Origin: Candidatus Omnitrophota bacterium
GTDB lineage: Bacteria; Omnitrophota; Gorgyraeia; Gygaellales; Profunditerraquicolaceae
Assembly (NCBI GenBank): GCA_016208765.1
Contig: JACQXK010000004.1
Location: 84,243 to 148,242 of the forward strand
DNA: 64,000 bases
Direction of reading: 5' to 3'
The position numbers and the translations under genes were made by a program. Positions 1 through 51,900 of this stretch are shown piece after piece. The first letter of the stretch is position 1, and every line of letters begins with the position of its first letter. The notes below the pieces were generated by a model. It was not told the DNA's origin, searched no databases, and was given only the letters and a program-made list of their open reading frames with translations.

Positions 1-3025
<3,025 letters not shown>

Positions 3026-3039
3026 ATTTAATCAGCCGC

Positions 3040-3273
3040 TTATTTATAAATATCAGGATTTATTCCCAACTTCTTGATCTTTACGCGCATAGTATTACGA
3101 TTTATCCCCAATATCCTTGCTGCTTTTAATTGATTGCCAAAGGTGCGTTCTAAGGCATATTCAAATAAAGGTTTTTCAATTATATCTAAAATTGCGCGAT
3201 ATACAAAGCCTTTTTTTTCCTTTAACAGGGATTCTTCAATTTCAATTAATTTTTCTTTTAGTCCATCAACCAT
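3040..3273 (-). CDS. Fis-family / NtrC-C-terminal-type HTH DNA-binding mini-protein (77 aa)
   Basis: C-terminal motif GNQLKAARILGINRNTMRVKIKKLGI is the HTH_8 (Fis/NtrC) signature. The gene sits directly upstream of gltB. Confidence 0.7.
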   Translation of the reverse strand: MVDGLKEKLIEIEESLLKEKKGFVYRAILDIIEKPLFEYALERTFGNQLKAARILGINRNTMRVKIKKLGINPDIYK

Positions 3274-3436
3274 GGCATATCCTGCTTAAAGTTTAGGCAA
3301 AGGATTTGTTAAAAAATAGAGGCGTCCATAACAGCCTAAGGTTAAGCTTTTATGAACGCCCCTTTGCGTTTAGTCTTAGTTTAGCACAACTGCGTGCCTT
3401 ATATTACAAGTAAATAAATTTCTTTCTTGGTAACTA
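3274..3436 (-). promoter_or_regulatory. Leader of the fis-like/gltB operon: bipartite motif plus hexaloop hairpin (AACGC-AAAGGG-GCGUU)
   Basis: Plus-strand TACAAGTAAA at 3405-3414 and TGGTAAC at 3428-3434 (23-nt offset, identical to three other leaders). The minus-strand RNA carries an A1/G4 hexaloop hairpin and a U-rich tract. Confidence 0.45.
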
Positions 3437-5659
3437 CTACTTTATAAAAAGCATCTCGCGGTACTTCGGCAGGTCCCAATGCTCGTCTGAGACTACCATT
3501 TCCAGATCATCAACATGCTTACGAATGTGATCCATTAACGGCTTCATTTCTTTATAATATACTTCTGCCCGTTTCTCCTGCTCCATTAAAGATGCTTTCT
3601 CTAAAAGCTTCTTTAATACTCCGGCATTACGCCTTACATAATAAATCTTTGCAACCACCTCATCTAAATGGTCTTTTAGATCCTCAAGCGCCTTTGTATC
3701 AGGCTTTAAACCGGTTTGTTTCTTCAAATTTGCCAAATCAATCAGGTTATCAGCCAATAATTTCTGATACTCAAAGCCTGCCGGAGCAACGCTTGCATTT
3801 ACCATTTCAATTAAAGTGTTTGCCTCAATTTCAAGGGTCAGGTTATACATGTGAATCCAAATATGGTAACGCGCAACCAGCTCTTCCTTGGATAAAACTT
3901 TATATTTTTCAAAGAGGGCTATATTTTCCTTTTTAATAAAAGCCTCTAATGCCTCAAATGTAGCAGCAACATTAGGAAGCCCTCTTTTCGTTGCCTCTTT
4001 TAACCACTCCTCAGAATAATTATTTCCCTCAAAACGCACATCCTTGGTTTCTTTAACCACCTGTGCAATTACCTGCAATACCGCAGAATTAAAATCTTTA
4101 CCGCTTGCCTGCGCTTTTTTGATTTTATCAGCAACATAATCAAGGGAGTCGGCAATAATGGTATTAATTACCGTAATTGATGTAGAAATATTCTGGGATG
4201 AACCTACGGCGCGAAATTCAAATTTCTGCCCGGTAAAAGCAAAAGGAGAAGTGCGGTTCCTGTCGGTTGAATCCTTGCTAAAAGTAGGCAGCCGGGCAAT
4301 TCCAAAATCAATAATATCGCTTTTTGAGATCTGCTTCTTTGTGCCTTTTTCAATCGTATCCAAAACGCGCGACAGCTGATCCCCCAGGAAAACACTGATA
4401 ATTGCAGGAGGAGCTTCATTTGCTCCTAAACGATGCTCGTTTCCGGCAAGAGCGACACTTGCGCGCAAAAGATCGGCATGCAGATAAACCGCTCTTAAAA
4501 CCGCGGACAACACTGCTAAAAACTGCAGGTTATCTTCCGGCGTTTGCCCGGGATTAAGCAGGTTGTTTCCTTTATCATCAGCTAACGACCAATTCAAATG
4601 CTTTCCGCTGCCGTTTATCCCTGCAAAAGGCTTCTCGTGTAAGAGGCAAACTAAATTATGGCGCAAAGCGACTTTCTTCATCAATTCCATCAAAAGCTGG
4701 TTGTGGTCAGCAGCAATGTTAGATTCCTCAAAAATCGGGGCAAACTCATATTGATGAGGCGCAACTTCATTATGCCTGGTCATTACGGGAATTCCTAACT
4801 TATACGCTTCCTCAGCAACTTCAAACATAAAATTCAAAACCCGCTCTTTAATTGTCCCGAAATATTGATCCTCTAACTGCTGGCCTTTAGGAGATGCTGC
4901 TCCTACAAGCGTCCTTCCGGTAAGCAAAAGATCCTGCCTTAGGTTATAATAATTTTTATCAATCAGAAAATACTCCTGCTCAGGGCCGCAGGTTGAAAAA
5001 ATCTTTTTAATATCTTTATGCCCGAAAACTTCCAGCAAATTCTTGGCTGCCTTGTTTAAAGCCTCGTCGGAACGTAAAAGCGGCAGTTTCTTATCCAAGG
5101 CCTCACCGTGATAAGAAATAAATATTGTCGGAATACAAAGGGTTTTCCCTAACTTACTCTCAATGATAAATGCCGGGCTTGAGGGATCCCATGCAGTATA
5201 TCCTCTTGCTTCAAAAGTAGCACGGATACCACCGGAAGGAAATGAGCTTGCATCCGGTTCGCCCTGAATAAGCTTTGATCCGGAAAATTTTTCAATCACC
5301 TTGCCCGGGCCGGTAATAGAAATAAAACTATCGTGCTTCTCTGCGGTCAAGCCGGTCATCGGCTGAAACCAGTGTGTGTAATAAGTAGCCCCTTTTGAAA
5401 TTGCCCACTCTTTCATGGCGTTGGCAATCTCATTAGCCTGTTCTTTGGAAATTTGTTTGCCCTCAGACATCCACGTCTTAAATGCCTCAAAGGTTGCATT
5501 GGAAATATACTTTTGCATAGTTTCAATATTAAAAGTATTCTCTCCAAAGTAAGCGGATACTTTTTCCGGCAAGTCCACCGTTTCTATTTCTATGCTCTTT
5601 ATCTTGGTCAACAACTCCTGTCTGATACCCATAAAAACCTCCACATAGTTAATGCGCAC
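3437..5659 (-). CDS. glnN: Glutamine synthetase type III (GSIII)
   Basis: 740 aa, the typical GSIII length. Catalytic-domain motifs include MTRHNEVAPHQYEFAPIFEE and the NGSGKH region. The gene lies in a nitrogen-gene neighbourhood. Confidence 0.85.
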   Translation of the reverse strand: MRINYVEVFMGIRQELLTKIKSIEIETVDLPEKVSAYFGENTFNIETMQKYISNATFEAFKTWMSEGKQISKEQANEIANAMKEWAISKGATYYTHWFQPMTGLTAEKHDSFISITGPGKVIEKFSGSKLIQGEPDASSFPSGGIRATFEARGYTAWDPSSPAFIIESKLGKTLCIPTIFISYHGEALDKKLPLLRSDEALNKAAKNLLEVFGHKDIKKIFSTCGPEQEYFLIDKNYYNLRQDLLLTGRTLVGAASPKGQQLEDQYFGTIKERVLNFMFEVAEEAYKLGIPVMTRHNEVAPHQYEFAPIFEESNIAADHNQLLMELMKKVALRHNLVCLLHEKPFAGINGSGKHLNWSLADDKGNNLLNPGQTPEDNLQFLAVLSAVLRAVYLHADLLRASVALAGNEHRLGANEAPPAIISVFLGDQLSRVLDTIEKGTKKQISKSDIIDFGIARLPTFSKDSTDRNRTSPFAFTGQKFEFRAVGSSQNISTSITVINTIIADSLDYVADKIKKAQASGKDFNSAVLQVIAQVVKETKDVRFEGNNYSEEWLKEATKRGLPNVAATFEALEAFIKKENIALFEKYKVLSKEELVARYHIWIHMYNLTLEIEANTLIEMVNASVAPAGFEYQKLLADNLIDLANLKKQTGLKPDTKALEDLKDHLDEVVAKIYYVRRNAGVLKKLLEKASLMEQEKRAEVYYKEMKPLMDHIRKHVDDLEMVVSDEHWDLPKYREMLFIK

Positions 5660-5868
5660 TTACGCCATTCCACATAAGCGTAATGTGCCTGTTATTTGTT
5701 ATATTCTACTATATTTTCCAGAAAAAACAAAGGCGTTCTTTTTATTAAGAACGCCTGCGTTCAAATTCGTTGTGTTGGCACTGCAATGTACCATAGCATA
5801 ATTCCTGCTCTACTCTTATTACAAGTAAACTTGTATCTATTTTGGTAACAAACTTTTAGTGGAACTAA
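5660..5868 (-). promoter_or_regulatory. glnN 5' leader: putative promoter motif, ANTAR-type dual hexaloop hairpins and an intrinsic terminator (attenuator)
   Basis: Plus-strand motif TACAAGTAAA 5820-5829 / TGGTAAC 5843-5849. Minus-strand RNA: P1 UGGUAC-AUUGCA-GUGCCA (5776-5793); P2 GAAC-GCAGGC-GUUC (5749-5763), sharing GGCGUUC with the terminator GGCGUUCUU-AAUAAA-AAGAACGCC (5732-5755) followed by UUUGUUUUUU. Confidence 0.6.
5732..5755 (-). terminator. Leader intrinsic terminator (attenuator) upstream of glnN
   Basis: Perfect 9-bp stem GGCGUUCUU/AAGAACGCC with a 6-nt loop, followed on the minus-strand RNA by UUUGUUUUUU. Confidence 0.6.
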
Positions 5869-6117
5869 TTATCCAATAGCAAGAGAGCCTCTCTCCCCTG
5901 TGCGTATGCGCACGCATTCAGATAACTCCATAACAAATATCTTACCGTCTCCTGTTGAGCCGCTTTTAGCGCCGTTAATAATGGCGTTAATGGCTGGTTC
6001 AAGGAAATTATCATTTACAGCTATTTCAAGACGGATCTTACGCAGGAGATTACCTGTTTCTTTGGCTCCGCGATAAACCTCGGTAACACCCTTTTGCCGA
6101 CCATGGCCCAAGCACAA
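5869..6117 (-). CDS. glnK: PII nitrogen regulatory protein (GlnK/GlnB), N-terminally truncated copy 1; it starts at the T-loop and lacks about 34 N-terminal residues
   Basis: [17 protein letters not shown]...[23 protein letters not shown] aligns to PII residues ~35-112. No MKKIEAII-type N-terminus is present in any frame upstream. The 5' end overlaps the tail of the amtB1 ORF by 68 nt. Confidence 0.6.
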   Translation of the reverse strand: MCLGHGRQKGVTEVYRGAKETGNLLRKIRLEIAVNDNFLEPAINAIINGAKSGSTGDGKIFVMELSECVRIRTGERGSLAIG

Positions 6118-7246
6118 ATTTATAGATCACAATTGTCCCGACAAACGTAAAACCAACAGCAACCGCAACACCCAGCAATTGAATAAACAGTTGTTTTGGA
6201 TTCCCAAAAAACAATCCGTCAGCTCCGGCAGGGTTAATCGCTTTTGAAGCAAACAAACCTGTGGCAATGGTCCCTAATATCCCGCCTACACCATGCACGC
6301 CAAAGGCATCAAGAGAATCGTCATAATTAAACATTGGTTTAATCAGCGCAACGGAGATAAAACAAAAAATACTTGCCAAAACCCCGATGATCAAAGCAGA
6401 TAGCGGGCTGACAAAACCACAAGCAGGCGTAATAGTAGCTAAACCGGCAATTATTCCGGTGACAGTCCCAAAGACCGTAGGTTTTCCATTGCGGATCCAC
6501 TCAAGCACCGCCCAGCTTAAACCTGCGCTTGCAGCAGCGGTATTTGTAACCACAAATGCATTGGCTGCCAAGCCATTTGCCGCAAGAGCGCTTCCTGCGT
6601 TAAAACCAAACCATCCAAACCAGAGCAATGCTGTTCCCAAAACCACTAAGGGCAAATTATGCGGAGCTGGCAAATGATGATCCATATTCTTACGCTTACC
6701 TATAATTATTGCCGTAACTAAAGCTGTAATCCCGGCGCTGGTATGCACAACAATCCCTCCTGCAAAATCAAGAACGCCCAAATTCTTTAACCATCCTCCA
6801 TCACCCCAAACCCAATGACAAAGCGGATCATACACAAAAGTCGCCCAAAGAAGCGTAAACACCAAAAAAGCAGAGAATCTTATTCTCTCAGCAAAAGCAC
6901 CAATAATCAGAGCTGGAGTGATCACAGCAAACATTGATTGAAAAGACATAAAAGCAATATGAGGTATAGTTACGCCATACGCTGCATAAGGTTCTGTTCC
7001 TACTCCAATCAAACCCAACCACGATAAACCACCCCAGAAACCTTTTCCCGGAGCAAAAGAAAGGCTATAACCAAAGATTACCCATTGCACGCTTAAAAGG
7101 CATATTGCCACAAAACACTGCATCAACACACTCAAAACATTTTTTCGCCTGACCATCCCTCCATAGAAGAAAGCCAGACCCGGAGTCATCAGCAAAACCA
7201 GGGCTGTTGAAAACAAAACCCATGCCGTATCACCTGAATTAATCAT
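6050..7246 (-). CDS. amtB: Ammonium transporter AmtB, copy 1; its 3' end runs out of frame into glnK
   Basis: 398 aa with full Amt/MEP conservation (FFYGG, HNLP..., GFNAGSA). The C-terminal tail ...[19 protein letters not shown] is the glnK T-loop region read in the -1 frame. Confidence 0.85.
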   Translation of the reverse strand: MINSGDTAWVLFSTALVLLMTPGLAFFYGGMVRRKNVLSVLMQCFVAICLLSVQWVIFGYSLSFAPGKGFWGGLSWLGLIGVGTEPYAAYGVTIPHIAFMSFQSMFAVITPALIIGAFAERIRFSAFLVFTLLWATFVYDPLCHWVWGDGGWLKNLGVLDFAGGIVVHTSAGITALVTAIIIGKRKNMDHHLPAPHNLPLVVLGTALLWFGWFGFNAGSALAANGLAANAFVVTNTAAASAGLSWAVLEWIRNGKPTVFGTVTGIIAGLATITPACGFVSPLSALIIGVLASIFCFISVALIKPMFNYDDSLDAFGVHGVGGILGTIATGLFASKAINPAGADGLFFGNPKQLFIQLLGVAVAVGFTFVGTIVIYKFVLGPWSAKGCYRGLSRSQRNR

Positions 7247-7464
7247 AACCAGCCTCCTCCTTATTTGCCTTATCTAAAAAACAAAGGCGTCCTTTAAATA
7301 AAGAACGCCTGCGTTCAATTTATGCTGTAACTGCTTCCGCACTCCGACGTGCTTAAGCATAAATCCATTAAAGCTGAGTTATAAGAAAAATACCCAACTT
7401 TTCGGATTATTATAAGTACAAGTAAAGAATTGGCTGTTTTGGTAACCCTTTTTTATCCTTTTTT
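7247..7464 (-). promoter_or_regulatory. amtB1 5' leader: bipartite motif, hexaloop hairpin and terminator (ANTAR-type attenuator)
   Basis: Plus-strand TACAAGTAAA 7417-7426 / TGGTAAC 7440-7446. P2 palindrome gaacgcctgcgttcaa at 7304-7319 overlaps the terminator ggcgtccttt...aagaacgcc (7286-7310), which is preceded on the plus strand by aaaaaacaaa (a U-tract on the RNA). Confidence 0.55.
7286..7310 (-). terminator. Leader intrinsic terminator upstream of amtB1
   Basis: Stem GGCGUUCUUU/AAAGGACGCC followed by UUUGUUUUUU on the minus-strand RNA. Confidence 0.55.
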
Positions 7465-7713
7465 CTATCCTATTGCCATCACCCCCCTCTCCTCAGTACG
7501 TATACGTATGCATTCAGATAACTCCATAACAAATATCTTACCGTCTCCTGTTGAGCCGCTTTTAGCACCGTTAATAATGGCGTTAATGGCTGGTTCAAGG
7601 AAATTATCATTTACAGCTATTTCAAGACGGATCTTACGCAGGAGATTACCTGTTTCTTTGGCTCCGCGATAAACCTCGGTAACACCCTTTTGCCGACCAT
7701 GGCCCAAGGCCAC
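7465..7713 (-). CDS. glnK: PII nitrogen regulatory protein (GlnK), N-terminally truncated copy 2
   Basis: (IV)[19 protein letters not shown]...[14 protein letters not shown]. It begins 5 nt after the amtB2 stop and again starts at the T-loop. About 190 nt are ~98 % identical to copy 1. Confidence 0.6.
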
Positions 7714-7721
7714 AATACTAA

Positions 7722-8951
7722 TTATTCTAAAACAGTATACGCGCTTTCACGGTGCTGGGTAAGGTCTAAACCGATAACCTCATCCTTCTCTGATACCCTG
7801 ATACCAATAAACAGATCCACCAATTTATAAATAACAAAAGTTGTAACAGCAGTATAAACAATGGTAACAAGCACTGTTATTAACTGCACCAAAAATTGTT
7901 TTGGATTCCCAAAAAATAATCCGTCAGCTCCGGCAGGGTTAATTGCCTTTGAAGCGAAGAGCCCTGTTGCCAAAGCGCCCCAAATCCCACCCACACAATG
8001 CACGCCAAAAGCATCCAGCGCATCGTCATATCCTAATCTCGGCTTTATGATCGTTACTGCCACAAAACAAAACACGCTTACTAATAACCCGATCACAATT
8101 GCCGGCACCACCCCCACGTAACCGGCTGCAGGAGTAATTGCCACAAGCCCTGCTACTGCGCCGCTGACTGTTCCAAAAAGAGTAGGCTTACCATTACGCA
8201 ACCATTCAATCAGCGCCCAGGAAAGTCCTGCAGCAGCAGCCGCAGTATTAGTAACCACAAACGCGTTTACTGCCAAGCCATTTGCCGCAAGAGCACTTCC
8301 TGCGTTAAAACCAAACCATCCGAACCAAAGTAATGCCGTACCTAAAACTACAAAAGGCAAATTATGCGGAGCAGGCAAATGATGATCAAGATTTTTCCTG
8401 CGGCCGATTACAAGCGCTGTTACAATAGCTGCAATTCCAGCGTTAATATGCACAACTGTTCCGCCTGCAAAATCCAAAGCTCCTAAATTTCTTAAAAATC
8501 CTCCTATGCCCCACACCCAATGGCAAAGCGGATTATACACAAAAGTCGCCCAGAGAATTGTAAAAACTAAAAACGCCGAAAATTTCATCCTCTCGGCAAA
8601 AGCTCCAATAATAAGCGCCGGCGTAATAATTGCGAACATCGCCTGAAAGATCATAAATGCCTGATGAGGAATTGTTCCTGCATAATCTGCATACGGCTCA
8701 AGGCCCACGCCATTTAAAGCAAACCAACTAAATCCTCCCCAAAAGCCTTTTCCGGGAGCAAATGACAAGCTATAACCGAATAAAACCCATTGCAGGCTTA
8801 AAACACAAAGCACAATAAAACACTGCATCAGAACCCCGAGAATATTCTTGCGCCTGACCATACCCCCATAAAAAAATGCCAGGCCCGGCGTCATAAGCAT
8901 TACTAACGCCGTAGACATCAACACCCATGCTGTATCACCTGCATTAATCAT
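7722..8951 (-). CDS. amtB: Ammonium transporter AmtB, copy 2, with an intact C-terminal tail
   Basis: 409 aa, about 75 % identical to copy 1. It has the canonical cytoplasmic tail ...[26 protein letters not shown]. Confidence 0.9.
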
Positions 8952-8969
8952 CTCTTTCCTCCTTTTTGA

Positions 8970-9767
8970 TTAAAAATCCATATCCAGCTGAAAAGTAACT
9001 GTATTTCTTAAATTTTTATTATTGTAAATGTCGTAACCAAATATCGCGGAAATATTGTTTGTGAACTTCCATGAAAAACCAACGTTAAGCGCCCCATAAG
9101 AAGATTGCGTTCCCTGATAATCAACACACAGCCAAAGTTTATCAGATATTTCTGACATGGTGCGCTCCCAGGCAAATAGCGGCCCGATATTGTCCCGTTC
9201 AGAATCTTTATCCCTTAATAATTTGGCGTTACCGTTAAAATATCCGGCGGAGAATCTGCCCAAATTAAACTTGCCAATATTAATTGTTTTTGCCCCTCTA
9301 AGATACCAAACATTATTATTTGTTTTATTGCGTTTTGTGCCGACATCATACACGCCGATGGCAAATGCTGGCATATTCTTAAAATAAGCATCCTCAGGCA
9401 CAGCCGCTTTAAAATTAAAGTAAAACGGATATGTATCTAATGATGAACCAAATCCTTTCTTATAATCAAACCCTGTTTCAGCCATAATTTTCCCTAAAGG
9501 CTGCCAAACACGCCCCAATAAATTATCTTCAGGTTTGTCAGACAAAAGGCTGAACGTAGAGCCATAGACTTGCTGAATATATGTTTTTATTTCATTCTTG
9601 TCTTTGCTTCTTACCGGGAAATACAAATCAGAGCCGATATGTATTTTCTTATATGGCTGGATATCTGTAGATGGCGACCAGATCAAAGTTGTAGGCGTAG
9701 CGAAAACAATTGCCGCATTTAAAACAAAAAACATCAAACCAAGAATTATTACACCCGTTTTTTTCAT
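8970..9767 (-). CDS. Putative outer-membrane beta-barrel protein (signal peptide; C-terminal ...QLDMDF)
   Basis: N-terminal hydrophobic signal peptide, alternating beta-strand pattern and a C-terminal aromatic residue. It shares an operon with amtB2. Confidence 0.45.
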   Translation of the reverse strand: MKKTGVIILGLMFFVLNAAIVFATPTTLIWSPSTDIQPYKKIHIGSDLYFPVRSKDKNEIKTYIQQVYGSTFSLLSDKPEDNLLGRVWQPLGKIMAETGFDYKKGFGSSLDTYPFYFNFKAAVPEDAYFKNMPAFAIGVYDVGTKRNKTNNNVWYLRGAKTINIGKFNLGRFSAGYFNGNAKLLRDKDSERDNIGPLFAWERTMSEISDKLWLCVDYQGTQSSYGALNVGFSWKFTNNISAIFGYDIYNNKNLRNTVTFQLDMDF

Positions 9768-9966
9768 TTATTGCATCCTCCTTTTAAAATAAAAAGCGCC
9801 TTTCTATCCAACACTGGAAAAAGAAAGACGCCCGCGTCTTAAAACCACCCTATAAACAAAAAAGCGTTCTTTATAGAACGCCCATGTCTTATACACCTCT
9901 GTGTGTATTTGCTGCGAAATATTGCACTTACATCAATACAAGTAAAAACCCTCTTTATCTGGTAAC
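9768..9966 (-). promoter_or_regulatory. Leader of the OMP-amtB2 operon: bipartite motif, hexaloop hairpin and two tandem terminators
   Basis: Plus-strand TACAAGTAAA 9937-9946 / TGGTAAC 9960-9966. Hexaloop AGAC-AUGGGC-GUUCU. Terminator 1 gcgttctttatagaacgc at 9855-9883 and terminator 2 aagacgcccgcgtctt at 9816-9840, each followed by U-tracts on the RNA. Confidence 0.5.
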
Positions 9967-10521
9967 CTAATCCAGGTATTTTTTACACTTTCCCCTGATA
10001 CTTGCCATCATTTTCACTACGCGCACATGAGAAACTCCGCAGCATTTTCCGATTTCTCTTGTAGTCAGCCCCTCGGAAAATAACCTTAGAAGCTGTTTTT
10101 CCCGGGTTGTAAAACCGTTGTTATGAATAGTTTCAGCAAGTAATTTACTGTTTAAAGTATCAAGAAAATTATCCGCAGAGGTATCCCTAAGAAGCAAGGA
10201 CTCCTCAAAATTGTTCCCCTCCTGATTAACAATTGCCTCAATACTTACAAGCCTTGATTTATCTTTTATCTTACGTAAATAATTCCTTAAATGAAAATAG
10301 CAGCCCTGTAATACATAGCTATCGGTCTTATCTGTCAGCTTTCCGGATGAGTAATCCTGCCAAAGATGCACAAGCGCCTCCTGATAAAGATCGTCATCCC
10401 CAAGAAAACGGCAGTAGCCGTTTAATTTATAGGTAATCCGCCTTAAAACAGGAGAAATCTTCTTTACTATTTGTTCAAATTCCATACCCCTCATCCTTAT
10501 AGAAAACAAAAAAGCGCCCAT
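9967..10521 (-). CDS. RNA polymerase sigma factor, sigma-70 family (ECF-like, 184 aa)
   Basis: Region-2-like DDLYQEALVHLWQ and region-4 HTH LTTREIGKCCGVSHVRVVKMMASIRGK. Confidence 0.6.
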   Translation of the reverse strand: MGAFLFSIRMRGMEFEQIVKKISPVLRRITYKLNGYCRFLGDDDLYQEALVHLWQDYSSGKLTDKTDSYVLQGCYFHLRNYLRKIKDKSRLVSIEAIVNQEGNNFEESLLLRDTSADNFLDTLNSKLLAETIHNNGFTTREKQLLRLFSEGLTTREIGKCCGVSHVRVVKMMASIRGKCKKYLD

Positions 10522-10653
10522 AATCCATTGCTGGATAAAGGACGCCTCAGTCCAAAAAAAAGCCTTCGCGGCATATTAACTTTGCCTTGAAGACCTCTGT
10601 GTCTCTATTACATCACTGTAATTAATTAAAGTTTACCACAAAATACCTTCTTG

Positions 10654-11376
10654 TCAAGTTTTACCTTTAATATCTCTGGCTAAAATAATTGCCTCGGCTA
10701 TTTCGCGCATGGTTTTACGGGTGTCCATGCTTTGTTTCTGGATCAGGCGAAATGCCTCAGAAGAAGAAATATTGGCTTCCTGAGAAAGAATGTCTTTTGC
10801 GCGTTCAATAAGCTTACGTGTGGTCAGGGCTTCTTCGGCGCTTCGCGCACGCAGGTCAAGCTCGGCATTTTCAATTGCTACTGCCGCCTGATTTGCAAGT
10901 GCGGTTAAAACATCCATCTCCTGTTTGGAGAATTTATGTTTTTTAGATGTGTAACAGTTTAATACCCCGATTACTTTGGATTTAACCGATAGAGGAACGC
11001 ATGCCAAAGAAACCAGATTCTCAGCCTTTGCAATATCGCGGTTTAAATAACCCGCATCCTTACGCACATCCTCCACGTAAACCGCCTTGTTTTCCAAAGC
11101 AACAACTCCGGCAATCCCCTGGCCTAATTTGATATTTGGTTTTTTATTATATGCTTCTGAGATAGATTGTGTTGCCCGCACCACCAGTTCTTTTTTCTCA
11201 GGATCAAGCAGTAAAAGCGAGGAAACCTTGGAATTCATCACCTCGGCAGTGACCTGCACCACCAAACGCAGCAATTCATCCAAATACAAACCTGAAGTGA
11301 TCAGGTTAGCTATTTTGGAAAGCGCCTCAATCTGTTTAACATAAATTTGATAGTGCCGGGCTTTAGTAGTAGACAT
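10654..11376 (-). CDS. GAF-ANTAR transcription antitermination regulator
   Basis: N-terminal GAF-like sensor. The C-terminal ANTAR domain (...LTTRKLIERAKDILSQEANISSSEAFRLIQKQSMDTRKTMREIAEAII...) matches the AmiR/NasR family. Confidence 0.75.
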   Translation of the reverse strand: MSTTKARHYQIYVKQIEALSKIANLITSGLYLDELLRLVVQVTAEVMNSKVSSLLLLDPEKKELVVRATQSISEAYNKKPNIKLGQGIAGVVALENKAVYVEDVRKDAGYLNRDIAKAENLVSLACVPLSVKSKVIGVLNCYTSKKHKFSKQEMDVLTALANQAAVAIENAELDLRARSAEEALTTRKLIERAKDILSQEANISSSEAFRLIQKQSMDTRKTMREIAEAIILARDIKGKT

Positions 11377-11379
11377 AAT

Positions 11380-12537
11380 TTAACGCCTCTTTTCTAAAAA
11401 TATTTCCATGCGCTTTAACGCCTCTTTTAAATTATCAAAACTTGATGCGTAAGAAATGCGCACATAATTATCAAGTCCGCTGCCAAAGGCAGTGCCCGGG
11501 ACAACTGCTACCTTCTGCTCTTTTAACAAGCTTTGCGCAAAATCAATCGCATTCATTCCGGTTTTCTTTATTGAAGGAAAGGCATAAAAAGCCCCTTGAG
11601 GTTTATGGCAGGTCAAACCAATACGGTTTAAGCCGTCAATCACAAATTCCCGCCTTCTTTTATATTCACGCTTCATTTCTTCAACAAATCTTCTTCCTGA
11701 AACTATTGCCTCTGCTGCAGCCATCTGGGCTGTGATAGAAACACACATAATTGTATATTGATGTATTTTGGTCATTGCGGCAATAACCTCTTTCGGCCCG
11801 CAGGCAAAACCCACACGCCAGCCGGTCATAGCATAACTTTTGGAAAAACCATCCAGATAAACAGTGTTATCTATTGCTCCGGGCAAAGTAGCAAAATGCG
11901 TGTGATTAAAATCATAGGTCAGGTCGCAATAAACCTCATCGCAGATTGCCATAACTTTATGTTTCAATAATACCTTATTAATTTCATAAAGCTCTTTTCT
12001 TGTATAAGAAACACCCGTGGGATTTGAAGGATAATTTAAGATAATTGCCTTGGTTTTTTTGTCAATGTTCTTTTCCAGCTCTTGCGGCGTGATCTTAAAA
12101 CCGTTCTTTGCCGTATTAATATACACTGGGACGCCGCCTGCTAACTCGGTAACCGGCCCATAAGAAACATAGCTCGGCTGAGGGACAATCACCTTATCCT
12201 GCGGCTCAAGAATAGAACGCAAAACTAAATCCACTCCCTCGCTGACACCGACAGTAATTAAGATTTCCTCATCAGGGCAATATTTTAAGCCGCATTTATC
12301 TTTAAGGTAATTGCTGATACCTAATCTTAACTTATATAATCCTTTATTGGAAGTATAAGACGTAAATCCGCTTTCCAAAGAATAGATCCCTGCCTCACAG
12401 ATTGGCCAGGGGGTAACAAAATCAGGCTCCCCCACCCCTAAAGAAATAACATCCTTCATTCCGAGCACTAAATCAAAGAATGCACGGATTCCCGAAGGCT
12501 GCATTTCTTCCACTTTTTTAGAAATAATATTTCTCAT
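11380..12537 (-). CDS. Pyridoxal-phosphate-dependent aminotransferase, class I (aspartate/aromatic family)
   Basis: 385 aa with class-I fold motifs (SNPTG, the YSFSKSYAMTGWRVG Lys region). Confidence 0.75.
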   Translation of the reverse strand: MRNIISKKVEEMQPSGIRAFFDLVLGMKDVISLGVGEPDFVTPWPICEAGIYSLESGFTSYTSNKGLYKLRLGISNYLKDKCGLKYCPDEEILITVGVSEGVDLVLRSILEPQDKVIVPQPSYVSYGPVTELAGGVPVYINTAKNGFKITPQELEKNIDKKTKAIILNYPSNPTGVSYTRKELYEINKVLLKHKVMAICDEVYCDLTYDFNHTHFATLPGAIDNTVYLDGFSKSYAMTGWRVGFACGPKEVIAAMTKIHQYTIMCVSITAQMAAAEAIVSGRRFVEEMKREYKRRREFVIDGLNRIGLTCHKPQGAFYAFPSIKKTGMNAIDFAQSLLKEQKVAVVPGTAFGSGLDNYVRISYASSFDNLKEALKRMEIFLEKRR

Positions 12538-45539: not shown

Positions 45540-48500
45540 TTAATTAAGCCACCATCTGCGCCTTAACCAATACGGCATTTGCCCAAATCCAAACGCATAG
45601 CTCTGAGAAAATGTATTAAGTAAACAGCCGTAATTTAAATTTTCATTGCTGTTTCCTTTCATACTTACGGCAGAGCTGGATTTATATGAATGTTTCCCGA
45701 TTTCAGATAGCAGCGCCTCTTGAATAGGAATTATATAGTCTTGATGCGTATATTCAGGAGACTGAGCAATCACGGTTAACTTTTGGCTAAATCTTGTTCT
45801 CTCAAAAAGTATTTTGATAGCGGTAACAATGCGTTCATTTAAGATATCGTTAAACCGTTCTCTGTTTCCACAAGAACTCAATATCCTGAAAGCCGGATCA
45901 ATGTAGCAATTATTTAGTAAAAAATAATCAATGTCAAAATCAAGTATTATATCCGGATAATCTTTTAAGTCGGAGAAATACGGAAGGTCATAAACATGGA
46001 TGACTCTTACATCAGGAATTAAACCTCTATTTTGTCTCCTTGCTTTTATGAGCAATTTCCGGACATTCTTTTGCTCTTTGGCTGGATTCATATAATGAGG
46101 AACAATCCAATACATCCTTGAAATAACCCCATGATAAAATAACGGCATTATCATAGAAGCGCAATCGTATTCAGACCACCAGTTTTGTATGGTATTTTGG
46201 CCGAGGCCATATATACGCGATGGCATACTCAAATCACTATGGGCATCAAAGTGGATTAATGTTGCTCCACGGGAAATTCTGCTTTTCAGCAAATACTCAA
46301 TTACTACGTTATACATCTGGCCGTGATCTACCACCAACCAAAGGCCATCATTGATCATTTTTACGCCTCTTAATATAACACGATCAAAACACTGCATCAT
46401 TGGAGCAAGCTTTACCGGTAGAAAAGTATGACTAACCTCATCAACTACAGCAACTTCAGGGCCGTTTCCTTCTTTCTTTATGGCGGAGCTGGAGTTACGC
46501 TGGAAGTGTCCCCTGTCTTCTGTCGCCGAGGAGGCGCCGCTTGTTAGCTTACCCACTGTCCCGATTGATTTGGAAACAGTTTCCGAGTTGTTCGGGAAAC
46601 TGGGCTCTTTTAGCACCGCCGAGGATGCACCCTCATCGGAATTAAATATTGTGTCCCTGGAATTAAACACTAACCTTATTGACATTCCTCCTGCCATACA
46701 AAGATATCTATATAAATAAAGAACGCCGTTATTCTCAGAATAATCGACTATCATCCCGGATAAATCCACGACATCGCCATTTTTATCCTTCGCATACCCC
46801 CTTATTACCAAACACGTCGGCTGACCTATTTCTTTTCGTGCCAAAAGCAGTTTACGCCGATACATCAGGTGTAAAGTTTCCTCAGTTTGCAACAGCAACA
46901 CTTGTGATAGAGTTTTAATCCTAAATATTTTATATGAACCATTATTAATTGCTTGAGCCCAAAACAATTCGGAGCGAAAACAGGCTGGATATAATAATGA
47001 GCTCCATAATCTGTTTCTGTCTATCCTTTTTGCATCGGCCCCTGCCTCACTTAAATCTACATCTTTAATTAAGGCCAATCGACTACCGCTACAAGCAATG
47101 GCAGAGCCGGAGCTATGCTGGAACAGCCCCCTGTCTTCTGCCGCCGAGGATGCGCCCCATCTTATGCGACCCACTATCCCGATTGATTTGGAAACAGTTT
47201 CCAAGTTGTTCGGGAAACTGGGCCCTTTTAGCACCGCCGAGGAAGCGCCACCGTTAGAATTAAATGTTGTATCCCCAGAATTACCACCAGAGTCCTCATC
47301 TATATACTCAAAAGCCGCATGTCTTATGGTTCTGCCGTTTTTGATCTCGGCAATCGGAATATCTTTGTAATCTTTAATATCAAAAGAAGTATTTACGCCT
47401 GATGATTTAATATGCCACTCCCTAAATGCATTCTCCACTAATCTATCAAGTTCCCCAAAAATTTGTGCTGCGGAAAAGTTTCCTTCTGTTAAACATCTTC
47501 GCTCGCCTTGCCTACAGATAGAGATACTAATAGGGTTTTTTTCAAAACTTGTGCGGACGATAACAATATCCTTGGCCATACCCAGGGATTCTACTATAGG
47601 AGTAGGGTTCCAAATGAACCCTATCTTTCTTAATCCCTCTAACTTAGTAGAAACAAATCTAGATTTACCAGTAGCACTCGTGTCTAATTCTGGATGCACA
47701 TCATCTATCCTCAACACTTTCTCATTTTTAGGATCTACAATCTGCTTTATTTTATTAGATAGATCTCCCAAAGAATAATTCTCGCCAACAACATTTACGA
47801 AGCATGGCATAGAACCTTCAAATTCTTTTATAAGCGAAGCTGCTAGGGCAGCGCAATCCCAAAGAGGAATAAAATTATAATACAGAGCGTTAGCATTTGG
47901 TGGCATTTTAAGAAAACTTCCTTCCAAAATATTCTTTATAAATTTTGACACTATGTCTATAGGTTTACCTTTTTTAAATAATGGAAAAAGGTTGCCCAAT
48001 CGCAAAACAACAGCCCTGAGTCCACTATAGTGCACCCTTCCAGCAATTGCATTTTCTATAATTATTTTACTTAATTCATATGGATGTTCAAGGTTATACC
48101 AACAATCACACTCACCCACTTTTTCCACTGTCTCTCTCTTACCATAAACCCTTAAAGAAGAAGTAAATACTAACCTTGTCGTTTTCATTAAATTCAAGTT
48201 TTTTAAAGCATCTAGAATATTAAAAGCCATTGCAATATTATTAGAAAAGATACTCCTAAATTCATCTTCGCTATAGCTGTTTTGTATTCGACTATCAGAA
48301 GCAAGATGATAAATAAAGCTCGGCCTTACCATACTCAATACTTTTTCCGTAGAAGCATAATCAGTTAAATCACAATGAACAATCTTTACCCTTCCTTCTT
48401 TTACCGCTCTTGAAAGACTACGGTTCAATGGTAAATCTGAAAGATAATCAACCCTGGAGGTGAGAACTGTTATGTCCTCTGCTACTGGATAATCAAGAAG

Positions 48501-48860
48501 TTGTGATAAAACCATAATGCCTAAATGCCCAAGCCCTCCAGTAATCAAAATCTTGTCTTTCTCTTTTCTAGATAAAGTATAGTCAGGCTTGCCTACTGAC
48601 TCTATAAGGTCAAATAATAACGACGCTCCACTCTTCTCGTCTTCCATATCAACATCCAAAGTTATTTTTTCCTTTTCTCCGGATAACGGCAACCATCGCT
48701 CTTCCCGGTCATCAATTTCCATGGCATCTGGAGATGCAAAAGGCAAAACCCCAAATTTTAAAAGCAAGAAAAATATGTCAGCCAACTGAACAAAATGCTT
48801 TCCTTCTAATAGATTACCCTTCAATCTCAATAATGGTATATAATCAACATCTCTTCGCAT
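45540..48860 (-). CDS. Giant multidomain protein (1106 aa): NAD-dependent epimerase/dehydratase, repeat, unknown domain, repeat, arginase/deacetylase-like domain
   Basis: Rossmann motif ILITGGLGHLG (nt ~47570-48545). C-terminal VVDHGQ...HFDAHSD. Two in-frame copies of the repeat family at 46462-46666 and 47098-47284. Confidence 0.6.
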   Translation of the reverse strand: MRRDVDYIPLLRLKGNLLEGKHFVQLADIFFLLLKFGVLPFASPDAMEIDDREERWLPLSGEKEKITLDVDMEDEKSGASLLFDLIESVGKPDYTLSRKEKDKILITGGLGHLGIMVLSQLLDYPVAEDITVLTSRVDYLSDLPLNRSLSRAVKEGRVKIVHCDLTDYASTEKVLSMVRPSFIYHLASDSRIQNSYSEDEFRSIFSNNIAMAFNILDALKNLNLMKTTRLVFTSSLRVYGKRETVEKVGECDCWYNLEHPYELSKIIIENAIAGRVHYSGLRAVVLRLGNLFPLFKKGKPIDIVSKFIKNILEGSFLKMPPNANALYYNFIPLWDCAALAASLIKEFEGSMPCFVNVVGENYSLGDLSNKIKQIVDPKNEKVLRIDDVHPELDTSATGKSRFVSTKLEGLRKIGFIWNPTPIVESLGMAKDIVIVRTSFEKNPISISICRQGERRCLTEGNFSAAQIFGELDRLVENAFREWHIKSSGVNTSFDIKDYKDIPIAEIKNGRTIRHAAFEYIDEDSGGNSGDTTFNSNGGASSAVLKGPSFPNNLETVSKSIGIVGRIRWGASSAAEDRGLFQHSSGSAIACSGSRLALIKDVDLSEAGADAKRIDRNRLWSSLLYPACFRSELFWAQAINNGSYKIFRIKTLSQVLLLQTEETLHLMYRRKLLLARKEIGQPTCLVIRGYAKDKNGDVVDLSGMIVDYSENNGVLYLYRYLCMAGGMSIRLVFNSRDTIFNSDEGASSAVLKEPSFPNNSETVSKSIGTVGKLTSGASSATEDRGHFQRNSSSAIKKEGNGPEVAVVDEVSHTFLPVKLAPMMQCFDRVILRGVKMINDGLWLVVDHGQMYNVVIEYLLKSRISRGATLIHFDAHSDLSMPSRIYGLGQNTIQNWWSEYDCASMIMPLFYHGVISRMYWIVPHYMNPAKEQKNVRKLLIKARRQNRGLIPDVRVIHVYDLPYFSDLKDYPDIILDFDIDYFLLNNCYIDPAFRILSSCGNRERFNDILNERIVTAIKILFERTRFSQKLTVIAQSPEYTHQDYIIPIQEALLSEIGKHSYKSSSAVSMKGNSNENLNYGCLLNTFSQSYAFGFGQMPYWLRRRWWLN
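46462..46666 (-). repeat. Full-length copy of the in-frame repeat (A-part + DR + palindromic core + DR + C-part)
   Basis: ccgtttccttctttctttatggcggagctggagttacgctggaagtgtcccctgtcttctgtcgccgaggaggcgcc...ggaaacagtttcc...caccgccgaggatgcaccctcatcggaattaaatattgtgtccc. Confidence 0.85.
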
Positions 48861-48910: not shown

Positions 48911-51900
48911 CTAAATATTAATATCAATTTGCTTTATCATCTCTCCAAATCTTAAAGTAAGAGCATATGTTCCAGGAGGTAAATTCAAAGTAGCCAAATC
49001 AATTTCCCCTTTAAAGATAAAATACTCGTCGCCATAATAGGAAAACGAGCGTTTCTCATCCAATCTTGCAGGAAAAACTGCAGTCGGATGACCTAAATCG
49101 TCTAAAGTTGGTTCTTTCTTCGCCGTTATTGCCACACCGAGCCACATAGCAAAATCCTCGTCTCCGGGTAAATATATATGAAAAGGAGGATTACCGCAAA
49201 CAAACGGCCGAAAATCTTTTTCTGCATAAAGCTCAAACATTCCTTGTATATGTCTTGCGGCATAGTCAAGGGCTTCGGGCTTAGTCCGAAAAATCGCTTC
49301 CCAAACGTCCAGTTTCACAGCTGCCTCCAAAGAAATCTTGCCATCTGAATTAACCTTAATAATTGTGTCTGGCTCCGGAGAAACTAATGCTGTCCACAGA
49401 TGCGAAACCTCTGCCTTTTGCCAGCGAATTTCCGAATCAGGGTAGATTCTCCTAGCTTCTATCTCTGGCGGAATCATATCTTTCAGTGGCCAAAAATATT
49501 CTCTAGTTTCTTCAAGAGCTGCTTCTTTATAAGTAACCCCCGCAGCAATACCTGTTGCTAAAATAGTTTGCAAATATTCTATTTCGCCATAATTCCCAGC
49601 TTCTCTCAATGCTTCAATTCTTTTATAAAATAATGCAGGCAGAAATTCATCTTTAAACCAGTTGAAAAATATTACTGGATAAGCAACGTTCTGCTCATGT
49701 AAGAATTGCAACAATCTATTTACTCTATTTCCCATAGGTGGACATACCGTGCATTCCATCTTAGGATTAAACCACTTCTTAAAAATACCTCCCATCCTTT
49801 CCCATCCGTCAACAGAAGCAAATCCTTCCCCAAGAGACCCCCCTCTTGAAAAAGCCCTATGGTCACAAGGATAGATTTCTGATGTAGCGCCTAAACAAGT
49901 ACAAAAATAAGCAAACCAACAGCGATCATAATCCGGCTTTCCAATGCCTCTGGATATATCTCTTTCATCATGTATGGTCTCCACCTTAAACCTGCCATCA
50001 GAAAAAGCCATTGATAGATTAAGACTCTCAATAATTTCTTTTTTATCTCTATCATTTAATAAACAGGCTTGATCGGGCCTGATATTAACCTTAAAACGTA
50101 TAAGATCAACGCCTGCTTTCTTAAGCCTTTCTGTTATCTGAACAATGCCTTTAAAATTCTCTTTTCCAATAACATACCCAACGTTTATTGCCAGTTTTGA
50201 GCCAGACTGATTCCTCATATTAACCAGCTCTTCAATATTTCTCATTATTCTTTCAAAATCACCTCTTCTACCTTCTTTCAACTCAAAGAAGCTGTCATTA
50301 CCATAAGCGTCCAAGCTGATATGCACATATTTCGCATAATTCACCAATGTCTCTCTAACTTCTTGGCTCATCAATACACCATTAGTGAATAACCCAACAT
50401 CAAAACCAAGCCTTGACGCTGCTGCTATCCCAAGAAGAGTCGTCTTTTTATTCACTAATGGCTCTCCGAATATGCCGGAAAATTTAATAACTTTCGTTCT
50501 TAATGATGGGGCAGCTTCTTCATTCGCAAGAAAAAAGTTGCAAAGCAACTCTAGTAACCAAAGAGGAGACATTTTTTTCTGAATTTTGCATCTTTCTTTC
50601 TCTCCGATGCAGTGCTTACAGTTTAGATTACACCCACCCGAAGGCTGAACTTCTATTTCATAAGGCAGAAAATCAAATTCCCCATTTAAAATTTTCAAAA
50701 CTCTGTCATATTGCCTTGTAAGTATATTTTCTTCGTAATTAAACTGCGTCCCTGAACGAGATAAGAAAGATTCTAACGCATTCTTCCATTTCACCTTCAA
50801 AGAAAATGATTCTGCTTCTCCACCAACCCCAGAAGATAAGCAACTATCTATTGCAGCAACTTCAGAACCTACACCGTTTCCTTCTTTCTTTATGGCTGAG
50901 CTGGAGTTACGATGGAACTGTCCCTCGTTTTCTAAGGCCGACGAAGCGCCTGCGGCAAAATTAAAACTACAATCTTCAAATCTCATAATCTGCATATCAA
51001 TTTCCTTATCAACAGAAAAATAATCTATATTCTGGTTTCTTGTAGATTTCTCATAAAATACATTTGGTTTGCGAAAGTTCGGCTTAAAATCAAAAATAAC
51101 CCAGTCTTCTTGCCCATAGAAAAGCACTCTCACCCACATATGACCATATACAATTGATTCAGTCCAGATTGCCTGAACATTTTTTATCTTATATTTCCCA
51201 AATTTTTCAAATTGATCAAAGTGCGAATAAAATAATAGCAATATCGCCCTAGAAATAACCCCACAATCATTCTCTCCAACAATTTCATGTAATAAAACGC
51301 CAACAAAATTATGCACAAGAGGATCAACAACAATACGTCCATCAAAAATATCTTGAATTGGATAATTAATTGAATAATCTTTTAAATTTACCTCGGTTAA
51401 ATTACTAAGTTTATTAGTTAAGGGCCGAAATTGCTTATAACGCTTATTCGCAATTAACAACACGTTTCCCCGTCTTTCAAAAATATCATTTTTATTCCAA
51501 TCAAGAACAACGGACGATTCTATTCTTTTCTCCAACGGCGAAGAGACAGCTGTCAAATTAAGCATTGCATCCCCTGAGTTCCTCCCACCTCTTCTTAAAA
51601 ATATTGAATAGAGCCTAAACCATTCTTGCATTAACTCAATCTTATCCCAAAGAAGAATTACAATATTAGAATCAATATTATTACAAAGGATTCCATTGCA
51701 ATCTTCTTTAAAAATTATTGAATCACCATTAAAATATACACAAGAAAATAACCCTGCTTCTTCTAAATATTGAATATACGACCCCTGTTTCCTTCCCCTG
51801 CCAGTAAATATCTCCTCCAAACCAAAACGATGGCTTATAAAAAAGTAGTCCGTTAGCATAAGCGGAATATGAAAGTATATTTTGTAGCCTCCCTTTAAAT

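Follow-up and report, generated by a model that had tools for sequence, protein, structure and literature searches.

Truncated glnK copies behind two amtB genes in an Omnitrophota genome: probable recent pseudogenes homogenised by gene conversion

The window analysed here, 64,000 nucleotides (nt) within a 225-kb contig of a Candidatus Omnitrophica metagenome-assembled genome (MAG), carries two diverged amtB genes for ammonium transporters, each followed by a glnK segment that encodes only the later part of a PII nitrogen regulator. These segments, PII'2 behind amtB2 and PII'1 behind amtB1, are most probably (roughly 0.7 by our own estimate) non-functional remnants, i.e. recent lineage-specific pseudogenes that were homogenised by gene conversion. 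On this reading the event is of a known kind, genes decaying in the ordinary way, and no new type of protein is involved. The truncations, a near-identical tract common to both copies, a mosaic 3' end of amtB2, intact genes in relatives and missing translation signals were all observed directly.

All genes of the locus lie on the minus strand, in the ancestral-type order porin, amtB2, PII'2, amtB1, PII'1, glutamine synthetase. They are given below with their open reading frames (ORFs) in amino acids (aa), and are compared throughout with L001 (GCA_020063045.1), the syntenic locus of a closely related genome.

8970-9767, minus strand: porin-like gene, 265 aa, no Pfam match, 18 nt upstream of amtB2, 93% identical in L001; termed porin-like from a reading of its sequence
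7722..8951, minus strand: amtB2, 409 aa, intact ammonium transporter, orthologue of the first amtB in L001 (96.8% aa identity)
7465..7713, minus strand: PII'2, glnK remnant, 82-aa ORF, PII residues ~34-113
7247..7464, minus strand: amtB1 leader, 218 nt
6116..7246, minus strand: amtB1 codons 1-377, L001 orthologue 96.3% identical over these residues; the whole ORF (7246-6050) has 398 aa
5869..6117, minus strand: PII'1, glnK remnant, 82-aa ORF, PII residues ~34-113, overlapping the end of the amtB1 ORF
5633..5868, minus strand: glutamine synthetase leader, 236 nt
5632-3437, minus strand: gene of a type III glutamine synthetase (glnN, GSIII)

Two glnK remnants and a tailless AmtB

PII'1 and PII'2 both match the Pfam family P-II (PF00543) at profile positions 34-102 of 102 only, so that neither holds the complete domain, and the initial annotation was right in placing an N-terminally truncated PII behind each amtB. 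Matching solved PII sequences, 37 out of 37, align from their own residue 34-35 on. Strand beta1, helix alpha1 and strand beta2 are absent from both remnants, which open at the start of the T-loop and reach the normal C-terminus; the retained part aligns with GlnK residues 35-108. The signatures of the T-loop (G-x-G-R-Q-K-G ... Y-R-G) and of the B-loop (T-G-x-x-G-D-G-K-I-F) are present in both copies, and R47 is kept.

Residues 1-34 of PII are strongly conserved across 115 full-length homologues. A hidden Markov model (HMM) was built on residues 1-36 of these proteins, and neither this model (best E = 2.4) nor tblastn detected a PII N-terminus in any of the six frames of the 64-kb window, in keeping with the earlier statement that no such coding sequence exists upstream in any frame. 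A split PII, with residues 1-34 contributed by a separate gene that complements the fragments, is extremely improbable. The window is 64 kb of the 225-kb contig and the rest of the MAG lay outside the search, which leaves room for such a gene; yet no such piece occurs in the window, the searches made gave no precedent, and relatives have ordinary one-piece genes.

Signals for translation are likewise missing. Inspection of the upstream regions showed no Shine-Dalgarno sequence and no ATG at either remnant. PII'2 could start only at GTG, ATT or ATA, the GTG being situated 8 nt past the amtB2 stop, and PII'1 only at TTG or ATA. AGGAGG-type ribosome-binding sites precede amtB1, amtB2, the porin-like gene and GSIII, and glnK of L001 begins with GGAGG-N6-ATG; initiation signals of their own are found at neither of the window's remnants. 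In GenBank these are annotated as 'P-II family nitrogen regulator' (MBI4706661 and MBI4706663) with ATA starts and lengths of 86 and 84 aa.

The transporters themselves are 73.0% identical at the nucleotide and 76.4% at the amino acid level, close to the ~75% protein identity initially given. AmtB2 covers the Pfam profile Ammonium_transp (PF00909) completely (1-399 of 399) and hence the full transporter domain including the C-terminal cytoplasmic region. AmtB1 covers positions 1-371 of 399 only and lacks that region: its alignment with the L001 orthologue stops at residue 378, the 31-residue C-terminal tail is deleted, and the final 21 residues of the ORF, which runs on to 6050, are translated from out-of-frame PII DNA. 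These residues are also part of the GenBank 'ammonium transporter' MBI4706662, which is amtB1. The 120 closest AmtB1 homologues are nearly all of 407-413 aa (range 398-431), and those inspected retain the tail ...RVSEKDE.....LDLTQH...AYT.LE, with two exceptions (P0327 and P0333, 398 aa) that end inside it at ...LDLTL.

The frame of PII'1 is +1 relative to amtB1, so that amtB1 reads the PII DNA in the -1 frame. Both the profile coverage and this frame analysis agree with the earlier description of a copy 1 amtB without its tail that reads into glnK in the -1 frame. PII'2 stands in frame +2 (equivalently -1) relative to amtB2. Programmed frameshifting was considered and rejected, because the two copies would need opposite shifts and there is no slippery site. 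The initial suggestion of a frameshifted or translationally coupled AmtB-PII' was not upheld: the frames differ, no known slippery motif was seen, a Shine-Dalgarno sequence is missing, and a PII domain (PF00543) occurs in 0 of the 120 closest AmtB1 homologues.

The shared tract and its junctions

The two remnants have in common a tract of 199 nt with a single mismatch (99.5% identity), made of exact matches of 141 and 57 nt. The initial annotation had reported ~190 nt at ~98%; the near-identity holds, and the measured tract is slightly longer and more similar than those figures. The relevant positions are as follows.

7510..7708, minus strand: shared tract, copy 2, 199 nt, mismatch at 7567 (A)
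5914..6112, minus strand: shared tract, copy 1, 199 nt, mismatch at 5971 (G)
7709..7721, minus strand: junction 2, 13 nt (TTAGTATTGTGGC) that separate the amtB2 stop from the shared tract
6108..6121, minus strand: junction 1, ...AAATTTGTG/CTTGGGCC
7722..7766, minus strand: 3' end of amtB2, last ~45 nt, of amtB1 (b) type

A run of 141 consecutive matches between paralogues that are ~27% diverged cannot be due to chance. It is the longest exact repeat of the whole window (5972-6112 = 7568-7708), and its length equals the largest default k-mer of the assembler MEGAHIT. Downstream of the tract the final 48 nt of the remnants differ at 15 sites. Upstream the identity ends at the junction (6112/7708), beyond which only TTGTG is common to both copies, offset by 2 nt. 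Junction 1 reads AAATTTGTG/CTTGGG. Junction 2 stands where L001 has a 76-nt spacer, a ribosome-binding site and PII codons 1-33, and its 13 nt do not encode the conserved residues S31, E32 and V33, of which E32 is invariant. In L001 the spacer between the first amtB and glnK (8134-8209) contains a long inverted repeat or hairpin (CCGTAGCTTGTATT...AATACAAGCTACGG); the window lacks this spacer.

The 3' end of amtB2 is mosaic. At sites where the two amtB genes of L001 differ, amtB2 is of the b type at 6 of 8 informative positions from about nt 1186 to the stop; over the rest of the gene 43 of 326 informative sites are b-type and 228 a-type (Fisher p = 1.4e-4, with a cut point that was picked after viewing the data). 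Its last 45 nt are identical to L001b at 40 of 45 positions and to L001a at 35 of 45, and the 21 nt ending in TAATT past the stop are 21/21 identical to the flank of L001 amtB-b. The locus therefore displays what characterises interlocus gene conversion, i.e. a near-identical tract, diverged flanks and mosaic flank sites relative to orthologues. This supports the earlier proposal of a recent conversion, made because the identity stops at the truncation point, and adds a direction: from the b-type 3' end of amtB2 and the TAATT past its stop, the donor was the amtB1 locus. A tract copied from there also accounts for the loss of the 76-nt spacer, for the truncated allele at both loci and for an identity that starts exactly at the junction.

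From this we infer three steps and their order. The ancestral cluster would have been porin-amtB2-glnK-amtB1-glnK-glnN, as is still found intact in the closely related genome. At the amtB1-glnK locus, a deletion would first have removed glnK from its ribosome-binding site to about PII codon 33, start codon included. A conversion tract would then have carried the defective allele from the amtB1 locus into the amtB2 locus, reaching from ~45 nt before the amtB stop to near PII codon 97 and replacing the 76-nt spacer together with the second glnK N-terminus. This presumably took place while amtB1 still had its tail, in a lineage whose glnK copies were already in concerted evolution. Finally, a second imprecise deletion near the TTGTG(G) microhomology may have dropped the amtB1 tail up to the same junction, leaving amtB1 to read into PII DNA out of frame.

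It is also conceivable, but unlikely, that a deletion hotspot between beta2 and the T-loop gave rise to each truncation separately, with conversion homogenising only what remained. The junction sequences do differ, and a deletion in another lineage (L082, see below) ends at PII residue 33, where a 9-nt VSE/VSE microhomology explains it. However, both copies begin at the same nucleotide, with a common C before TTGGGCC and with TTGTG just upstream, and the b-type amtB2 tail and TAATT show the tract crossing the junction from the amtB side.

An artefact of assembly or scaffolding, in which near-identical copies from a genome with full-length glnK genes were mis-joined, has to be weighed here as well. 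The coincidence of the 141-nt repeat with the largest k of MEGAHIT speaks in its favour. A large set of groundwater MAGs, to which this MAG may belong by its accession series, was assembled with MEGAHIT and scaffolded with IDBA-UD, and two comparison loci from that set have 'k141' contig names. There is also one assembly only. De Bruijn assemblers, however, cannot invent junction k-mers, so that the junctions must exist in the reads. The 13 nt before the copy 2 tract do not encode S31-E32-V33, and un-collapsing a longer repeat would restore no gene. Moreover, the mosaic amtB2 tail relative to another genome points to real recombination, the remaining genes of the cluster match their L001 counterparts in length, and a comparable deletion is present in two independent Logan assemblies of another lineage. 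We therefore hold an artefact to be improbable. Its explicit form, a repeat collapse by MEGAHIT at k = 141 plus scaffolding, was rejected, since it could be made to yield neither both junctions nor the non-coding 13-nt filler.

Relatives, constraint and a second truncated lineage

The best 120 PII matches were taken from a search of 5.8 billion non-redundant proteins. Among them the only truncated forms are the two proteins of this contig; of the other 118, 115 have 113 aa and three have 114-126 aa. All four proteins of the locus (MBI4706661-64) form singleton clusters at 90% identity. L001 has the arrangement amtB(409)-PII(113)-amtB(409)-PII(113)-GSIII, with the gene order kept from the GAF-ANTAR regulator to GSIII, and its porin, AmtB, GAF-ANTAR and GSIII proteins are 93-97% identical to those of the window, where the other genes of the cluster have the same lengths as in L001. 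The comparison of orthologous amtB-glnK loci was extended from L001 to 80 further amtB loci from GTDB species representatives (81 PII matches, counting the two of L001). All linked PII genes in these 80 loci align from within PII residue 12, and 0 are without residues 1-33. Hence, of the 'conserved pseudogenes' offered among the initial readings, the pseudogenes stand and the conservation does not: this truncation occurs in this MAG only.

Within L001 the glnK copies are 95.7% identical and the amtB copies 72%, which indicates that concerted evolution of the glnK pair predates the truncation. An exact search of metagenome contigs of the Joint Genome Institute (JGI) with either junction and with a 25-mer of the tract gave no match, so that no independent assembly of this strain was recovered.

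A short PII-like module had been another of the initial readings. The searches brought up no family of short PII proteins; the short database ORFs that were inspected are contig-edge fragments, frameshifted genes of long-read genomes or genes with miscalled starts. L084, with the frameshifted genes of a long-read assembly, is one source of such ORFs. In another genome (L085 2420-2500, GCA_041643055.1) the second glnK has CTG in place of the relatives' ATG and is annotated with 87 aa, the full coding sequence being present. A literature search gave no precedent for a truncated PII or an AmtB-PII fusion. AlphaFold2 monomer models of the 82-aa fragment and of a full-length relative (P0003), run on the same 47-row alignment, reached a mean predicted local distance difference test score (pLDDT) of 56.6 and a predicted template modelling score (pTM) of 0.44 for the fragment vs 71.4 and 0.63 for the relative, the values of both models being modest. 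With no such family, with beta1, alpha1 and beta2 missing and with the lower pLDDT of the fragment, the module reading is not supported.

The remnants carry modest signs of relaxed constraint, as judged from their sequences. With 108-109 of the 113 outgroups, they show about 6 lineage-specific amino acid changes and the nearest full-length relative 1.5-1.9; the Tajima counts are 7:1. The substitution E85S is found in 0 of 115 homologues, and only 2 of the 115 are as distant from the family consensus as the remnants.

A second case of truncation was reached via P0123, the best match in a library of cluster representatives at 50% identity. L082 and L083 are Logan contigs of another Omnitrophota lineage, from two sequencing runs and 3 single-nucleotide polymorphisms apart, and their amtB1-type gene, ~80% identical to that of the window, precedes the glutamine synthetase leader. 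Within positions 1-800 of either contig a 174-nt deletion places PII residue 33 (VLGHGRQKG...) directly after the AmtB tail (...DFFSKMRVSE), with the reading frame kept. The deletion spans AmtB tail, spacer and PII residues 1-32, with the 9-nt VSE/VSE microhomology at its junction, and amtB also has a premature TAG (431-433 in L082), which favours decay over a useful fusion. Given the different junction and the AmtB identity of only ~80%, the truncation in L082 is independent of that in the window. From this case it is clear that other projects and assemblers, too, yield such truncations in real reads, and that the gene pair has decayed more than once.

Could the fragments nevertheless be functional? 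Re-initiation after amtB2 might release them as free T-loop mini-proteins of ~80 aa; alternatively, a +1 frameshift, or a 2-nt difference that went unrecognised, might tether them to AmtB1 as a plug. Both ORFs are intact and keep R47 and the T-loop and B-loop motifs, copy 2 has its GTG 8 nt past the amtB2 stop, and copy 1 is just 2 nt away from an in-frame AmtB1(1-377)-ALGHGRQKG fusion. In the other lineage the AmtB tail is indeed joined in frame to PII residue 33, and the end points of the two independent deletions are no more than ~4 codons apart. On the other hand, the proteins are singletons without conservation, the missing beta1-alpha1-beta2 supplies one half of the PII sheet and contributes to the trimer and the nucleotide site, and the AlphaFold2 model is of low confidence. 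Furthermore, there is no Shine-Dalgarno sequence, the copies differ in frame relative to amtB (+1, -1) with no known slippery motif seen on inspection, rare substitutions have accumulated, and the in-frame fusion in L082 sits behind the premature TAG without a ribosome-binding site. We consider functional fragments quite unlikely. Very unlikely is the more specific version, that a fragment from T-loop to C-terminus is expressed, free or tethered to TM11 of AmtB1, and that the deletions of both lineages were selected to end at the boundary of beta2 and T-loop. If true, selection would have favoured these deletions for turning the fragment into a block of the AmtB pore that is constitutive or regulated differently.

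Several observations weigh against the interpretation as recent, conversion-homogenised pseudogenes. Both remnants are open across 79 codons with no stop and no frameshift and so bear no positive sign of long decay; open frames are, however, to be expected if the events are recent, as the single mismatch in 199 nt suggests. A deletion between the TTGTGG of amtB1 and that of junction 2 would have given an in-frame product with 2 nt (GC) more than junction 1 has. The PII-side ends of the deletions in the window and in L082 lie within ~4 codons (~7% by chance), which could hint at selection in place of microhomology, and a single assembly of this species is on record. A further point concerns divergence. 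The PII tract (window 5869-6108 and 7465-7704 compared with L001 8210-8551 and 10001-10342) is 77% identical to glnK of L001 in nucleotides, with saturated synonymous sites, and 88% at the amino acid level. For the flanking amtB genes the nucleotide identity is 86-88%, with a synonymous divergence (dS) of 0.7-0.9, and the amino acid identity 96-97%, all neighbours being at 93-97%. PII is thus far more diverged than its neighbours, so that the history of glnK is discordant and decay alone does not account for it. The two lineages may have undergone conversion in different directions, or glnK may have been replaced, or taken from a different donor, in one of them. No closer donor of the tract was found among the available loci, which are all 69-77% identical in nucleotides.

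Leaders, wider meaning and comparison with known systems

The leaders of porin-amtB2, amtB1 and glutamine synthetase (9966-9768, 7464-7247 and 5868-5633, minus strand) have two hairpin elements in common, with counterparts at L001 5897-6093, 8552-8758 and 10343-10564 and at L082 ~860-1180. Hairpin 1 has a six-base loop (GCAC-GUCGGA-GUGC or GGUAC-AUUGCA-GUGCC, with compensatory changes in the stem). The 3' arm of hairpin 2 (GAAC-GCAGGC-GUUC) overlaps the 5' arm of an intrinsic terminator, and the folding z-score is about -4. A GAF-ANTAR protein is encoded at 11376-10654, and the two-hairpin architecture is that described for ANTAR antiterminators (PMC3369931). An Rfam scan of 3000-12000 at E <= 1 gave no match; hence the leaders are not a curated riboswitch.

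All three leaders of the window, as well as those of L001 and L082, open with boxes of the form GTTACCA-N13/14-TTTACTTGTA, which look like a dedicated promoter. A 184-aa ORF at 10521-9967 contains a GerE-type helix-turn-helix (Pfam), its N-terminus resembles sigma-70 region 2 by reading of the sequence, and it is a candidate for the sigma factor or regulator that acts on these boxes.

9966-9930, 7446-7415 and 5850-5820, minus strand: leader boxes
7310-7285, minus strand: intrinsic terminator in the amtB1 leader
5756-5731, minus strand: intrinsic terminator in the glutamine synthetase leader

Elsewhere in the window, large minus-strand ORFs occupy 48911-57955, 59747-63982 and 45540-48860. The ORF of 3014 aa matches radical-SAM twice and contains a B12-binding domain, that of 1411 aa shows nothing beyond a weak HATPase_c match, and that of 1106 aa carries epimerase and UPF0489 domains. 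These very large ORFs have exact repeats of 31-78 nt in common.

If the PII segments are pseudogenes, the organism would, from what is known of PII and AmtB, be left without an amtB-linked GlnK able to form the trimeric fold and plug AmtB. The cytoplasmic tail of E. coli AmtB is linked to full transport activity and to the interaction with GlnK, and AmtB1 lacks such a tail. The window and L082 together suggest that some groundwater Omnitrophota can do without GlnK control of AmtB; in these, a GAF-ANTAR antiterminator appears to govern the nitrogen genes. The locus would furthermore clearly illustrate, in a bacterium, how concerted evolution of tandem paralogues can spread a disabling deletion. 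Its main value lies in annotation and in this small evolutionary case; it opens no long-standing question.

Four known systems bear comparison. In the canonical amtB-glnK pair and the AmtB-GlnK complex (E. coli GlnK, PDB 1GNK, 2NUU, 2NS1) a PII gene likewise follows amtB and encodes the T-loop and the B-loop (TGDGKIF); the window differs in that both copies are without residues 1-33, ribosome-binding site and start codon, and one AmtB is tailless. The L001 cluster is alike in gene order and in having a near-identical glnK pair beside a 72%-identical amtB pair, but its glnK genes are full-length (113 aa) with GGAGG and ATG, both its amtB genes encode 409 aa, and the 76-nt hairpin spacer is in place. 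The pseudogene of L082 and L083 is similar in the deletion of the AmtB tail, the spacer and PII residues 1-32 at the locus before the glutamine synthetase leader, and differs in its in-frame junction (MRVSE/VLGHG, 9-nt microhomology) and in the premature TAG in amtB. Finally, human CYP21A2/CYP21A1P is a case of a gene inactivated by conversion from a defective paralogue. There, as in the window, a defective allele is copied to a tandem paralogue, with a near-identical tract and diverged mosaic flanks; the window differs in being a bacterial tandem pair, with a donor that would later have been hit by a further deletion and with a direction and order of events reconstructed from the sequences.

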